Source of the DNA: Escherichia phage PC3
Sequence record: ON184125
Reading direction: 5' to 3' (one strand)
Length of the DNA stretch: 64,000 nt
The notes under the pieces are model-generated. The model saw only the letters and a list, made by a program, of their open reading frames with translations, had not been told where the DNA came from and did not search any database. The position numbers and the translations under genes were made by a program. Shown in pieces: positions 46,034 through 54,042 of this stretch; within the stretch, counting starts at the first letter, position 1, and the number at the start of each line of letters is the position of its first letter.

Positions 46034-47254
46034 ATGAAAGATAAAGCCCTGGACGTCCCGTACTGCGGTGTCCGTGAAGAAAAGATAAAGTCGGCCAAAC
46101 CGGTTCTCAGTCCGACCCATACCAGCCTGTCTTACGAATGGATGCGCGATCGTTATCAGATCCACGTCAAGAAGGACGTCCAGCGCCTTCCTGCTCCTTG
46201 GACTGATAATCCCATATTACGGCAGGTCAAGTTCTGTAACGTCCGGAGAGAGCACGACAGGCAGTCTCTCAACCTGATCAACAACATCGTCAACAACGAT
46301 GCTCTGGGTATGGCCGACAAGATGTTCAACTGCGTGATGTTTCGCATGTTCAACCTCTGGGATCCAATCCAGGCTATCGGCGGCGCGATGACGATCAAAG
46401 AATTCGCCGAGATCAACCTCGATGCAACCCGCGAACGACTTCAGAAGTTCGAGGCCGACGGCGGTAAGGTATTCACCAATGCCTTCAACACGGGCGGCCT
46501 GAAGCAATGCCTGGCTTTCCCTGAGATGGTTGTCAACCACAAGGAGCAGCGCTTCGGTGGGATGATGGTGAATCTGATCTGTAAAGATGGTTCAACCCAG
46601 AACATGGATTATAAAGAAGCCAAGGCGATAGCCGAAGCAGAACCGGACTTCTACACCATCGAAGGTTGGGAACCGTACATGCCAATGCGTGTCATCCGCT
46701 CCCTGAAGGCATTCGTCAACAAGTATCCAAATTATTTCCATGACCTGCTGCGCCTTGGTACTCCTTTGGAAGTATACCAGCGCATGTACGACGACATCGA
46801 AGGGCTTGGTCCATTCCTGGCCTATCAGATCTGGGTAGACTTCACTTACATTCCTGAATATCCTTTCAGTGAGAACCACTTCACGGTTGCTGGACCAGGC
46901 TGTCGCGCAGGGATCGACCTGATGTTCCAGGACAAAGATGGCATGACGCATGAAGAATGCATCTTCTGGTTGCGGGACAATCAGGACGCGGTTTATGGCC
47001 CTCTTGGGTATAACAGGGAAGAATTTTGGTCTGCGGAAGAGCCTTGGGATCGCCATTTAAATATAATGGCAGGAGAAAATATGTTTTGTGAACTTCAGAA
47101 ATATACCCGTTGTGTAGAGGCCATACAGCAAGGTAAAAAGCCGCGCGGGAAGGTTGGATATGACGGCGGTGGGGAATACAAAAAGCGCTGTGATGAAGTC
47201 GTGCTCAAACGTGGTTCCGTCAATTTGCTGGACCGTTTGAAGAAACCTGAATAA
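46034..47254 (+). CDS. Hypothetical protein (406 aa)
   Basis: Long ORF, no motif recognised. Confidence 0.5.
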   Translation: MKDKALDVPYCGVREEKIKSAKPVLSPTHTSLSYEWMRDRYQIHVKKDVQRLPAPWTDNPILRQVKFCNVRREHDRQSLNLINNIVNNDALGMADKMFNCVMFRMFNLWDPIQAIGGAMTIKEFAEINLDATRERLQKFEADGGKVFTNAFNTGGLKQCLAFPEMVVNHKEQRFGGMMVNLICKDGSTQNMDYKEAKAIAEAEPDFYTIEGWEPYMPMRVIRSLKAFVNKYPNYFHDLLRLGTPLEVYQRMYDDIEGLGPFLAYQIWVDFTYIPEYPFSENHFTVAGPGCRAGIDLMFQDKDGMTHEECIFWLRDNQDAVYGPLGYNREEFWSAEEPWDRHLNIMAGENMFCELQKYTRCVEAIQQGKKPRGKVGYDGGGEYKKRCDEVVLKRGSVNLLDRLKKPE

Positions 47255-50246: not shown

Positions 50247-51119
50247 ATGACAAATCGTACTGGCATAAAACTCACTCCTGAAGTCCTGAAGTCACATATC
50301 GCTGAGGTGATTTACGAAGACCGCGAAGTCGGCGGTCACCGGGCTATCACTTGTCATTTCAAGATGGATAACGGCTTCGTCGTTCACGGCACCAAGCCCA
50401 GCACATCCATAGACCCGGCCAACTTTGATGAAGCCCTGGGCAAAGAGATTTCCTACAATAATACCTTCGACCAGCTGTGGCAGCTCGAGGCGTACCGGGC
50501 GCTTGTTGAACAAGATCTGTTGGCCAAAGCCACGGAAACGGCAGAGATCCGGATCGATAAATACGCTGTTGAACGTAGCGCCCTCTATCCGGCCTATCAC
50601 CTCGGCTTCAATGTGATGATTCAGGACGTGATGTTCAGAGCGGAAAATGGCGAGCGCTTCTTGGCGTCTTTCGTTTGTGGGCCGGATGACATGGAACTTG
50701 TTGTTGAATCTCACAACGCCAAATCTCGTAAGGCTGTTAGTGATTTCCTGCGCGCCAACTCCAAACTCGATCTCACTTATTCGCCATTGGTTCTGCGCAT
50801 CGCCAAGATTTGTCATGAAGCCAACCGCGCATACTGTAAGTCTGTTGGTGACGACTCTCAACTGCCTTGGGAACAATCTCCGGCCTGGCAACGTGAGAGC
50901 GCTTGCAAAGGTGTTATCTTCCATCTCACTGGTGATCGTAAGCCCAGCGAATCACATGAGAGATGGATGGCGGAGAAGGAGTCTGAGGGTTGGGTGTATG
51001 GCCCAGTCAAAGACCCTCAGACCAAACAACACCCTTGCATGGTTCCGTATGGAGAACTCCCGGTACAACAACGCTCCAAAGATTATATTTTCAAATCCAT
51101 TGTAGACTCCTTTAAATAA
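50247..51119 (+). CDS. Hypothetical protein with C-terminal RyR-like domain
   Basis: LPWEQSPAWQRESACKGVIFHLTGDRKPSE...GWVYGPVKDPQTKQHPCMVPYGELP recalls the RyR domain seen in phage proteins. Confidence 0.45.
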   Translation: MTNRTGIKLTPEVLKSHIAEVIYEDREVGGHRAITCHFKMDNGFVVHGTKPSTSIDPANFDEALGKEISYNNTFDQLWQLEAYRALVEQDLLAKATETAEIRIDKYAVERSALYPAYHLGFNVMIQDVMFRAENGERFLASFVCGPDDMELVVESHNAKSRKAVSDFLRANSKLDLTYSPLVLRIAKICHEANRAYCKSVGDDSQLPWEQSPAWQRESACKGVIFHLTGDRKPSESHERWMAEKESEGWVYGPVKDPQTKQHPCMVPYGELPVQQRSKDYIFKSIVDSFK

Positions 51120-51152
51120 GCTCTGAATAATATTTCAACCTGTCAATAATAT

Positions 51153-51188
51153 AATGCCCGGTTATATTCAATCGGGCATTTTTATTAT
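51153..51188 (+). terminator. Terminator hairpin preceding the early promoter
   Basis: aatgcccg-(12-nt loop)-cgggcatt plus TTTTATTAT. Confidence 0.5.
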
Positions 51189-51193
51189 ATTAA

Positions 51194-51224
51194 TTGACAT
51201 CAATACCGCCTGTCGTAATATAAT
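51194..51224 (+). promoter_or_regulatory. Sigma70-like early promoter (TTGACA-16-TAATAT / -19-TATAAT)
   Basis: Canonical -35 TTGACA with AT-rich -10 just after a terminator hairpin; drives the vWA operon. Confidence 0.55.
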
Positions 51225-51269
51225 AGTTCCATGTTGAAATAGTTGGGAAATATAACTCACGAGAGCCTG

Positions 51270-51446
51270 ATGACCGACAACAAATTAAAACGTGCCGGAC
51301 TTGATTGTCTTGACAAATCATTCCGCCCCAGTGATGTTCTGGTCGCCCAAATGGAAAACAACCGGGATTTCATTGAAACTATGCTGGAGAACGCCGACGC
51401 GAACTCCAAACACTCCAAAGCCCAAAAAGGTCAAAACGATGATTGA
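51270..51446 (+). CDS. Small hypothetical protein (58 aa), translationally coupled to the vWA gene
   Basis: ATG downstream of the sigma70-like promoter; stop overlaps the next start (ATGATTGA). Confidence 0.35.
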   Translation: MTDNKLKRAGLDCLDKSFRPSDVLVAQMENNRDFIETMLENADANSKHSKAQKGQNDD

Positions 51447-53640
51447 ATCATTAACATTTAAGAATGCGGTTGCGACCGTCGCGCCGTCTAACCATGTAAT
51501 CGTTGTGGATATCTCCGGTTCCATGTATCGTTCACTTCCAGAAGTCCGTAAGCATCTGAAGGAGAACATGCCTTCCCTGGTGAAACCCGAAGATACTGTG
51601 AGCATCCTTTACTTTTCATCTCGCGGTGATTTCGGAACGGTATTTGCCGGGCGTCAGATCGGTGCCGCATCTGACCTGAGCGAGCTGAACAAACTGATCG
51701 ATCGCTTCCTGCAACCGTCCGGATGTACTGGCTTTGTTGAGCCGTTGAAACTGGCAATGGACACTGCTCGTGGCCTGAAGAAGCCTGGCTATGTCAACAA
51801 CCTGGCGTTCATGACTGACGGGTATGACAACTGCTGGCGTACCAACGAAATTCTACTGGTTGCTGAGACCCTGCCATTTGCTTTCGATAACATTACATTT
51901 ATCGAATATGGCTGGTACTGTAACCGCGAACTGCTGGCGCAGATGGCCGAACGCTCTGGTGCTACTCACGTGTTTGCCGAAGGTCAGACCGAATACCAGA
52001 CCGAGCTGGAAAACGTGCTGAAGTCATCAGTGCCGAAGGTGGTTGTTGATGTGCCTCTGCTATACACCCACGCCATCTATGTTGAAAACGGCGTAGCAAC
52101 TGTTCTGGCGGTACAGCCGGATGAAGACCATCCTATCGGCCACGTGAGCATCCCTGAGAGCGTCGCCAAGCTGTGGGTTGTAAACCCTAACATGATCGAC
52201 CAGCTTGATGCGCTGGCGGATATCCAGGCGGCATACGTGCTGGCGTTCTACGGCGTACACATTATGGACGCGGACCTGGTGTGGGCTGCACTGAAGAAAA
52301 CGGGTGACGTTCGCTTCATCAAACAGTACAGCAACTGCTTCACCAAGCAGGACTACTCCAACATCAAAGTTGATCTGACCCAGGCCATCGTTGATGACCA
52401 GCTGCGCGGCGTTGACGGTATTGACTATGACCTGGTTCCGGCTGAAGATGCGACGACCGTCGTTGACGTGCTGACGTATCTGGCTGAAGCTGGCGTGTGT
52501 GTTGCTACCAAACATCCTATGTTCTCCTACAAGAGCATCGGGCGCGGTACTGTGCAGAAAACCGACGACACCGAAGACAAGCTGGCAGAACAGATCGCGA
52601 ATGCTCAGTCCAAAGAAGAGCGTAAAGCCCTGGCTCTCAAGCTGGCAGAGCACGAAGAGTGGAACCCGACGTTCGAACCTACCAACGACCTGGGTGTTGT
52701 GCCAATCAGCGATTTGGTCTATAACTCCGAGCGCCCGAACATCAGTGTGCGTACAATTCAACACGGTACTGTGGCTGTGCCTGAATTCGCACAGAAGAAG
52801 TTTGGCCTGCCTGAAGAACTGGATACTTTCCAGTGGCGCAACTACACCATCGTCAAAGACGGTATCATTAACGTGAAGACTCTGCCGTTCAAGGCTGATA
52901 TCGAAGTTGTACAGAAGCTGATCGAAATGGGTGTCCACGTGTTTGGTGGTCCGGAAGTGTTTGTCCTGAACCTGGAAAGCGTACCGCTGGTCAACCGCGC
53001 CATGGTCAAAAACATCAGTGCTGCTCAGTTCTTTGCGGATAATGTCCGTCTGGAAGCCCTGAAAGGCAAGCAGAAGGTGCTGAAGTTCTATCGAGACGCC
53101 CTGGTTGGTAAGGGTAACGCCAAAGGCCTGGCAGTACAGTACGGCGCTGAGGCGGCCGAGTTCCTGTCCTCCTACGGTATCCGCGATTACGGCTTCTCAC
53201 CGAAGACTGAGACCAAAGAGTCTACCGACTTCTACATGAGCCGTGAGCTGAACGTTAAGATCGCCGGGGCGTCTTCACTACCGAGCATCGCGGCAGTACA
53301 GAAGAAGATTGCCGAGAACAAGAAACTCAATGCTGGTGACTTGTTCATCGCTAATGCGCTGAAGGAGTACGAAGCATTCGTGAAGTCTCCTATGATCACT
53401 GCCGTGCCTGAATCCTTACAGAAATATCTGATCGAAAACTGGATCGACGCTGCTGCCAAGGCGGCCATCACCGAAGTCCGCGCCCTGAACAAGACACTGT
53501 CTAAAGTGGTTTATGGTATCGTTGCTGGTCATGGCTGGTTCACCGACCTCGACCTGGAAGAGTCCACCATGGAAGTTGAAGTGGATGGCGTGAAGTACAA
53601 GGTCACTGCCGAACTGACAGAGAAAGAAATCAAAATCTAA
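51439..53640 (+). CDS. von Willebrand factor A (vWA) domain protein (733 aa)
   Basis: MIDAS motif VVVDISGSM near the N-terminus; long C-terminal extension of unknown function. Confidence 0.65.
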   Translation: MIESLTFKNAVATVAPSNHVIVVDISGSMYRSLPEVRKHLKENMPSLVKPEDTVSILYFSSRGDFGTVFAGRQIGAASDLSELNKLIDRFLQPSGCTGFVEPLKLAMDTARGLKKPGYVNNLAFMTDGYDNCWRTNEILLVAETLPFAFDNITFIEYGWYCNRELLAQMAERSGATHVFAEGQTEYQTELENVLKSSVPKVVVDVPLLYTHAIYVENGVATVLAVQPDEDHPIGHVSIPESVAKLWVVNPNMIDQLDALADIQAAYVLAFYGVHIMDADLVWAALKKTGDVRFIKQYSNCFTKQDYSNIKVDLTQAIVDDQLRGVDGIDYDLVPAEDATTVVDVLTYLAEAGVCVATKHPMFSYKSIGRGTVQKTDDTEDKLAEQIANAQSKEERKALALKLAEHEEWNPTFEPTNDLGVVPISDLVYNSERPNISVRTIQHGTVAVPEFAQKKFGLPEELDTFQWRNYTIVKDGIINVKTLPFKADIEVVQKLIEMGVHVFGGPEVFVLNLESVPLVNRAMVKNISAAQFFADNVRLEALKGKQKVLKFYRDALVGKGNAKGLAVQYGAEAAEFLSSYGIRDYGFSPKTETKESTDFYMSRELNVKIAGASSLPSIAAVQKKIAENKKLNAGDLFIANALKEYEAFVKSPMITAVPESLQKYLIENWIDAAAKAAITEVRALNKTLSKVVYGIVAGHGWFTDLDLEESTMEVEVDGVKYKVTAELTEKEIKI

Positions 53641-53645
53641 TCCAA

Positions 53646-53670
53646 CGGGCGGGGCAACCCGCCTTTCTTT
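53646..53670 (+). terminator. Rho-independent terminator after the vWA gene
   Basis: ggcggg-gcaa-cccgcc plus TTTCTTT. Confidence 0.55.
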
Positions 53671-53681
53671 GGAGTAATAAC

Positions 53682-54005
53682 ATGAGCAGTAAACCAACAT
53701 ATGTTGAAGTCATGCGTCATCTGGCTCAGTACGCCACTGACAATCTGAATATGGATCTGTGGCGTGACGATGACAAGCGCAAATTGCTGGACGACGTGGC
53801 ATCTCAGAACGAGGACGCCCTGGACAAGCTGGCTGGTCTCCGTACCAAGAAAGACCTCGGCGGTGACGAACTGGATGCCATCGAAATCGTAATGGAACTA
53901 GAAGAAGAGTTTCAGGTCGAAATCGACGACGGGTGGCTAGGTAGTAAAGGCGATGACCCGACCATGGGTGAACTCGCTGAACTCGTGGTTGCCCTGCGCA
54001 AATAA
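53682..54005 (+). CDS. Acyl-carrier-protein-like protein, conserved Ser replaced by Glu
   Basis: KDLGGDELDAIEIVMELEEEFQVEI aligns with the ACP core [24 protein letters not shown]; Glu occupies the phosphopantetheine site. Confidence 0.6.
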   Translation: MSSKPTYVEVMRHLAQYATDNLNMDLWRDDDKRKLLDDVASQNEDALDKLAGLRTKKDLGGDELDAIEIVMELEEEFQVEIDDGWLGSKGDDPTMGELAELVVALRK

Positions 54006-54010
54006 CAGAA

Positions 54011-54042
54011 GTCCCCAACAAACGTTGGGGATTTTTACTTTT
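54011..54042 (+). terminator. Rho-independent terminator after the ACP-like gene
   Basis: tccccaac-aaac-gttgggga plus TTTTTACTTTT. Confidence 0.6.

Follow-up and report, generated by a model that had tools for sequence, protein, structure and literature searches.

The DNA analysed here, a stretch of 64,000 nucleotides from Escherichia phage PC3 (ON184125; hereafter the window), contains a gene for a 107-residue protein that resembles the acyl carrier protein (ACP) of bacterial fatty acid synthesis but has Glu63 in place of the Ser to which phosphopantetheine is attached. The window corresponds, with 100% identity, to the first 64 kb of Escherichia phage PH4 (ON184126.1; Ackermannviridae, Aglimvirinae). 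The protein has the fold-level features of an ACP but lacks the one by which a working carrier is defined. Because the acceptor Ser is always Glu or Asp in its family, the protein, judged from its sequence, cannot carry acyl groups. We propose, with a probability of roughly 0.45, that it is a stoichiometric ligand of the host proteins that bind the E. coli ACP, AcpP, and an unmodifiable competitor for them.

An earlier note on this DNA, made from the letters alone, had described the product as ACP-like. The reading frame is present, and its similarity to ACPs in Pfam, PHROG, phmmer and hhalign comparisons lies far beyond chance. The PP-binding profile PF00550 matches with 26.0 bits (E 1.1e-5), above its gathering cut-off of 20.8, and the PHROG 4154 'acyl carrier protein' profile matches end to end, over residues 1-107, with 2.4e-57. 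The full-length match and the conserved position after a gene for a vWA protein place the gene in the PHROG 4154 group, and the family is found in 270 phage records at a coverage of at least 80%. When solved ACPs were searched with phmmer about 100 were matched, the best with 5.5e-6, always through residues ~50-84 and with E63 aligned to the Ser. A profile of 31 orthologues, compared by hhalign with a profile of Ser-type viral ACPs, gave a probability of 99.3% (E 2e-20), and E63 again fell in the Ser column. The peptide that the note had quoted as aligning closely with the ACP core, KDLGGDELDAIEIVMELEEEFQVEI, does so, but it spans residues 57-81 rather than 58-83; residues 58-81 are identical to residues 31-54 of E. 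coli AcpP at 16 of 24 positions. The four-helix bundle of carrier proteins, which the note had proposed to look for in a structural model, was also found, and Foldseek ranked ACPs first, though without significance, as is expected for so small a protein. The closest sequence relatives are housekeeping ACPs of the fatty acid synthase (FAS) type, not the carriers of polyketide synthases (PKS) or nonribosomal peptide synthetases (NRPS). All NCBIfam ACP equivalogs scored below cut-off, the best being TIGR00517 with 34.6 bits against a required 70.45, and this over residues 54-83 (helix II) only.

In all alignments the Ser column is occupied by Glu63, as had been claimed, and across the family by Glu or Asp. 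The Glu63 codon, GAA (53868-53870), is not a sequencing slip, since it is two nucleotide changes away from any Ser codon. Among 41 protein clusters (55-98% identity) position 63 is Glu wherever the motif is covered, apart from Asp in two. The distant full-length relatives (P0042-P0047, P0049, P0062 and CRW-SP2) have Glu or Asp, as does every orthologue from 100% down to ~35% identity. The invariant residues of the 31 orthologues include no Ser at all, and the only invariant hydroxyl residue of the Ackermannviridae orthologues is T94, which falls where canonical ACPs usually have a Thr that caps helix IV; the relative P0053 has Gln at this position. As an ordinary helix IV cap, T94 was rejected as an alternative attachment site; S88 was rejected because it is not conserved. 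The conserved Ser of a functional carrier is thus missing and an unmodified protein is predicted, which supports, for the canonical way of attachment, the earlier statement that the protein could not be phosphopantetheinylated. No ACP-dependent enzyme (fab, PKS, NRPS, phosphopantetheinyl transferase (PPTase) or acyltransferase) was found among the neighbours of the gene, and the complete related genome of MK-13, in which most genes are 'hypothetical', has no gene annotated as PPTase, ketosynthase, acyltransferase or ligase.

The orthologue of Erwinia phage Bue1, with the motif AMDELD, likewise carries Glu at the Ser position. In the record of this phage (vB_EamM-Bue1, MG973030; L120 5316-5615) it is an uncalled open reading frame (ORF) of 99 codons with AMDELDYIEFIMELEDD, directly after the vWA gene; it occupies a 440-nt 'intergenic' gap and was missed in the gene calls of the contig.

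The conservation of the protein is uneven along its length. Over the 83 codons outside an insertion in loop I, dN/dS is ~0.03 with dS of 0.34-0.50 (PH4, MK-13 and IMG/VR locus L027), and the protein is therefore functional. In the insertion dN reaches 0.5-0.67 and dS is saturated, against a dN of 0.01-0.05 across the other 83 codons. At least three unrelated-looking allelic types of loop I occur (that of PH4 and LIMEstone, that of MK-13 and IMG/VR locus L024, and that of IMG/VR locus L027) in proteins whose remainder is ~99% identical, a pattern suggestive of either an exchange of cassettes or a strong pressure to diversify. At the level of sequence comparison, then, the ACP core is strongly constrained and the loop I cassette is swappable or fast-evolving. 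In the alignment with short relatives and AcpP the insertion is confined to the Ackermannviridae family; the AlphaFold2 (AF2) model predicts two short helices there, 30-40 and 44-51. Invariant positions are found in helix I (Y7, V10, L14, A18, N21 and L22) and in the connection between helices II and IV (D83, W85, G87, D91, D92, P93, T94, G96 and E97).

Further invariant positions lie in and next to helix II, the 'recognition helix' of ACPs and their surface for docking partners. In the 31 orthologues D62, L64, D65, I67, E68, E74 and E76 are invariant and M71, L73 and E75 nearly so. D62, which lies just before the helix II span, E68 and E74/E75 are the counterparts of D35, E41 and E47/E48 of E. 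coli ACP. In that protein these residues form ion pairs with AcpS, and modification by AcpS is abolished when they are neutralised (bioRxiv 10.1101/2025.01.28.635281). Helix II is also the ACP surface used for SpoT and fatty-acid enzymes (PMC3340395).

Proteins of the same kind occur in other viruses. A scan of IMG/VR with the pattern [DN][LV]GxD[ED]LDx[VI] matched 19 loci, 13 of them on viral contigs (19-265 kb) from outside the Ackermannviridae; these 13 encode ACP-likes of 76-110 residues with a DELD or DDLD motif. The short relatives P0053, P0055 and P0057 have a DDPT-type loop together with Glu, without the insertion and without a nearby vWA gene. Viral ACPs of the Ser type are much commoner: IMG/VR contains at least 454 ACP relatives, and Ser is present in 74 of the best 80. 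Several independent losses of Ser among viral ACP-likes are indicated, because, with the Ser column masked, the nearest neighbour is a Ser-type protein for 19 of 42 proteins of the acid type. The Ser-less samples were gathered with profiles or patterns biased toward Glu and Asp, so that only the restriction to these residues within the family is robust; a general preference for them as replacements of Ser was for this reason rejected as a claim. Two orthologous Vibrio phage fusion proteins have Ser at the attachment position in one and Asn in the other, which suggests that Ser can be dispensable in phage ACP-likes. When the ORFs surrounding 20 non-Ackermannviridae ACP-like loci and those of the window were compared by all-against-all BLASTP, no neighbour family was shared besides the ACP-like gene.

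Some of the domain arrangements met in these searches are unusual. In the two Vibrio phage fusions, from 277E43-1 (L014 2980-3513) and P018-4 (L016 2989-3549), the ACP-like domain is N-terminal and is followed by a C-terminal domain of ~100 residues that is common to both (BLASTP 3e-14 over the full length). A genome and metagenome library contained proteins with lipoprotein or signal-peptide N-termini and ACP-like domains that have DELD or DDLD for DSLD (P0096, P0101, P0115, P0118, P0121, P0147, P0165, P0182, P0189, P0074 and P0077); these appear to be exported ACP-fold domains incapable of phosphopantetheinylation. Xanthomonas phage phiXF1 has a Ser-bearing ACP gene (L015 2992-3237) between its gyrB and gyrA genes, an odd context for lipid metabolism.

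A role as a ligand is proposed for the PH4 protein because the docking helix, the acidic residue and the fold are conserved while acyl carriage is impossible. The protein would be a 'pseudo-carrier', descended from an ACP of the type II FAS kind, in which the fold of four helices and the acidic docking surface of helix II persist while the phosphopantetheine acceptor is permanently lost. We infer that it is made in the cytoplasm, early or in the middle of infection, where helix II would dock onto the basic ACP-binding sites of host AcpP clients. Candidate targets are AcpS, PlsB and enzymes of fatty-acid or lipid A synthesis, and among non-lipid proteins MukB, SpoT and IscS. Once bound, the phage protein would compete with AcpP while being itself beyond acylation or regulation. 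The acidic residue 63 may provide a negative charge where holo-ACP has its phosphodiester and may cap the N-terminus of helix II, and specificity could be tuned by the variable cassette of loop I together with the W-G-DDPT loop. That the host supplies the partner is the most economical assumption, because no neighbour is conserved across viral lineages and the closest relatives are FAS-type ACPs.

Precedents exist for ACP acting without its cofactor. Keating, Carey and Cronan reportedly found in 1995 that overproduced apo-ACP is toxic to E. coli because it inhibits glycerol-3-phosphate acyltransferase (PlsB), and in 1987 Therisod and Kennedy are said to have found that ACP lacking the prosthetic group supports the synthesis of membrane-derived oligosaccharides. 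The ATPase of MukB is stimulated equally by apo- and holo-AcpP (PMC8602292). Ribosomal protein uL29 and ACP stabilise TnsD of Tn7; apo- and holo-ACP were both used in these assays, and the helix II double mutant D39R/E42A of ACP was tested in the same work (PMC12372198). The suggestion in the earlier note of a mimic, decoy or scaffold fits these precedents as well as the invariance of helix II, the low dN/dS of the core and the lack of annotated ACP-dependent enzymes and PPTases in MK-13, but a decoy and an accessory subunit are computationally indistinguishable.

Several points weigh against a ligand of host ACP clients. Neither the comparison of neighbours nor the analysis of co-variation found a partner for the protein. 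The helix II residues also serve the stability of ACPs, and their conservation is no proof of docking. Capping of the N-terminus of helix II could by itself explain why residue 63 is always acidic, with phosphate mimicry only a possibility. W85, G87 and DDPT, which are invariant in the family, could equally form an interface with a phage protein; many phage genes are unannotated, and a phage-encoded partner may lie elsewhere in the genome. Any gain to the phage from blocking host ACP clients is hypothetical.

The protein might instead be an accessory subunit or cofactor of a phage protein, a metabolism-independent ACP module of the sort that Tn7 TnsD obtains from its host, although we consider this unlikely. 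That ACP is already the cofactor of a mobile-element protein (PMC12372198) speaks for such a role, and the family-specific W85, G87 and DDPT suggest a dedicated interface. The obvious candidate for a partner is the vWA protein encoded upstream; the exposed carboxylate at position 63 (Glu or Asp) would complete the metal ion-dependent adhesion site (MIDAS) of that protein. The MIDAS sites of integrin I-domains take an acidic ligand residue, and such a ligand would explain why only Glu and Asp occur at position 63. The MIDAS residues D24-x-S26-x-S28, T97 and D127 are invariant in 45 vWA homologues, and the order vWA gene, hairpin, ACP-like gene is kept in five phages or contigs (PH4, Taipeivirus May, CRW-SP2, the divergent metagenomic relative L008 and Erwinia phage Bue1), the two genes being probably co-transcribed. 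This synteny is, however, limited to Ackermannviridae and Bue1. The vWA family is found in 472 phage records, including T4-like phages of ~175 kb, against 270 for the ACP-like family; in JC221 and Thanatos-1 no ACP-like gene adjoins the vWA gene, and DELD or DDLD ACP-likes occur in viral contigs that have no vWA gene nearby. Moreover, the vWA proteins are still 72-98% identical where the ACP-likes fall to 35%, and no co-variation was found between the type of loop I cassette and the vWA sequence. The two genes thus show neither obligate co-occurrence nor co-variation, each is widely found without the other, and the link to vWA that the earlier note had implied is weak. The structure of the vWA protein, a vWA domain with a beta-sandwich N-terminus, gave no clue to its C-terminal 440 residues or to a connection with ACP.

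A general acidic mimic or anti-defence protein in the style of Ocr or ArdA, titrating a DNA-binding or basic defence protein and only incidentally of ACP ancestry, would be small and very acidic, as the phage protein is (pI 4.26; 27 Asp and Glu in 107 residues). The location in an early or middle region, where relatives carry NAD-salvage genes, and the hypervariable cassette, with several alleles in proteins that otherwise hardly differ, as is frequent where host and virus interact, would also agree with this idea. However, E. coli AcpP is equally acidic (pI 4.05), so the charge is inherited, and what is conserved is the set of ACP helix II residues and not a DNA-like array of charges; we regard the idea as a long shot. 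PADLOC gave no match, which carries little weight because its library is one of defence, not anti-defence, proteins, and in the literature searched no known defence system is tied to ACP. It is very improbable that the protein is still a carrier, with a non-canonical attachment or another acceptor residue. GenBank and PHROG label it as one and T94 is an invariant hydroxyl, but no Ser is conserved, T94 has the ordinary capping role described above, the NCBIfam scores are far below cut-off and no enzyme that would modify the protein or handle its acyl group is annotated in MK-13. PPTases are not known to modify any residue other than the Ser with which helix II begins. That the gene is a captured acpP in decay, with no function left, is hardly credible. 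A relic of the pseudogene kind would indeed be expected to have lost its catalytic Ser, yet the ORF is intact in the 270 phage records, the core is under the purifying selection described, a ribosome-binding site (RBS) and a terminator are present, and position 63 is acidic only. The single peptide of the ACP-like protein detected once, in the Sajous1 proteome (PMC10892097), also counts against a remnant.

Compared with the bacterial type II FAS ACP (E. coli AcpP; PF00550), the phage family differs in its Glu or Asp for Ser, in the loop I insertion of ~25 residues and in a W-G-DDPT connection that is 4 residues longer; its gene lies outside any fab, PKS or NRPS cluster and its products score below the NCBIfam ACP cut-offs. 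With the apo-ACP ligands it would share action through protein contacts without a prosthetic group. Unlike these, which are a normal host protein in its unmodified state, it is a phage paralogue hard-wired to be unmodifiable. Phage ACP genes that retain the Ser, mostly catalogued as auxiliary metabolic genes, are likewise stand-alone and small, and the close Ser-type relatives P0058, P0061 and P0065 also have a DD-x-T loop; the PH4 family and, among the other viral lineages, a minority differ from them in the acidic replacement. In large complexes, ACP-like structural subunits are known from mitochondrial complex I (SDAP/NDUFAB1), from trypanosomes (mt-SAF32), from Tetrahymena (ATPTT11) and as an 'acyl carrier-like' subunit of cytochrome c oxidase (COX), but these are eukaryotic and organellar, and canonical mitochondrial ACP, unlike the phage protein, keeps its acyl-phosphopantetheine, which is inserted into LYR partners.

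The annotation and the PHROG family were already known; what is new is a carrier-protein fold turned into a non-carrier, which belongs to the core genes of a phage family and recurs among other viruses. Literature on phage ACPs, ACP mimics, anti-defence and the Ackermannviridae genera yielded annotation-level mentions and one proteome detection by a single peptide, and in the literature searched there was no mention of the missing Ser or of a function for this family. Hundreds of phage genes, including those of therapeutic Ackermannviridae, are labelled 'acyl carrier protein' and included among the auxiliary metabolic genes; for the PH4-type family this name misstates the function, since acyl carriage is impossible. 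ACP is among the most connected proteins of bacteria, serving lipid, lipid A, biotin and lipoate synthesis and binding MukB, SpoT, IscS and SecA. An unloadable ACP of viral origin would amount to a natural probe or inhibitor of this hub, one that is genetically encoded, and could show which interaction is relevant in infection. More speculatively, and somewhat doubtfully, viruses may have repeatedly evolved pseudo-ACPs in which Ser gave way to a phosphate-imitating carboxylate, metabolism-blind and unmodifiable ligands that hijack or block the host ACP hub (PlsB/AcpS, MukBEF, SpoT), with the loop I cassette engaged in an arms race; this would be a way of host takeover not described before, encoded by an Ackermannviridae core gene. 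The acidic-only Ser position and the recurrent independent losses offer a clear and cheap experimental entry point.

Table 1. Features of the ACP-like gene, its product and the adjoining transcription signals (window coordinates).
Feature	Position	Strand	Basis or remark
ACP-like coding sequence	53682..54005	+	107 aa; identical with PH4_000053, annotated 'acyl carrier protein'
Helix I of the ACP fold, residues 7-22	53700..53747	+	MAFFT alignment with short relatives and AcpP; AF2 helix 7-21
Loop I insertion, residues ~23-46 (~25 aa)	53748..53819	+	alignment; hypervariable cassette
L59-G60-G61-D62-E63-L64-D65, counterpart of the LGADSLD attachment motif	53856..53876	+	alignments
Helix II, 'recognition helix', residues 63-77	53868..53912	+	alignment, AF2
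Helix II-IV connection, residues 83-97	53928..53972	+	alignment; 4 aa longer than that of AcpP
vWA protein, 733 aa, intact MIDAS motif	51439..53640	+	syntenic, probably co-transcribed; candidate partner only
Sigma-70-like promoter candidate, TTGACA-16-TAATAT	51194..51221	+	consensus match only
GC-rich hairpin with weak T tract	53647..53664	+	separates the vWA stop codon from the ACP-like RBS
Strong terminator hairpin, immediately 3' of the ACP-like gene	54012..54031	.	TCCCCAAC-AAAC-GTTGGGGA, then TTTTTACTTTT on the + strand

The ACP-like gene is preceded by a GGAG RBS. The nearest sigma-70-like candidate upstream of it precedes a small ORF and the vWA gene (Table 1) and could drive all three. 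Because of this placement, with the weak hairpin ahead of the gene and the strong terminator behind it, the ACP-like gene is probably the last cistron of the vWA transcription unit, as judged from consensus scans, rather than standing just after the vWA operon as the note had put it. The weak hairpin between the two genes is a candidate for a partial terminator or an RNA-stabilising hairpin; a terminator is annotated at the equivalent place in Klebsiella phage May. The exported proteins that the note had placed downstream are indeed there: the genes that follow encode small proteins, several with signal peptides, and one spanin-type lipoprotein. Upstream lie genes for a 5-hydroxymethyldeoxyuridine (5-hmdU) DNA kinase, a DUF8224 protein, a DUF3268 zinc finger, an N4-gp49/RyR protein and the vWA protein.

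The 5-hmdU DNA kinase (window 46034-47254; PF18723, 2.5e-79), ~6.4 kb upstream of the ACP-like gene, is the enzyme that in these phages serves as marker for the hypermodification of thymidine. The small ORF ahead of the vWA gene has 58 codons (window 51270-51446) and overlaps the vWA start by 8 nt; a counterpart of 57-68 residues occupies the same place in May, CRW-SP2, MK-13 and L008. In L003, L008 and L013/L019 a NAD salvage pair, ribose-phosphate pyrophosphokinase and nicotinamide phosphoribosyltransferase, separates the N4-gp49/RyR gene from the vWA unit. PH4 is without this pair (window 51119-51270), which marks a variable insertion point just upstream of the vWA operon.
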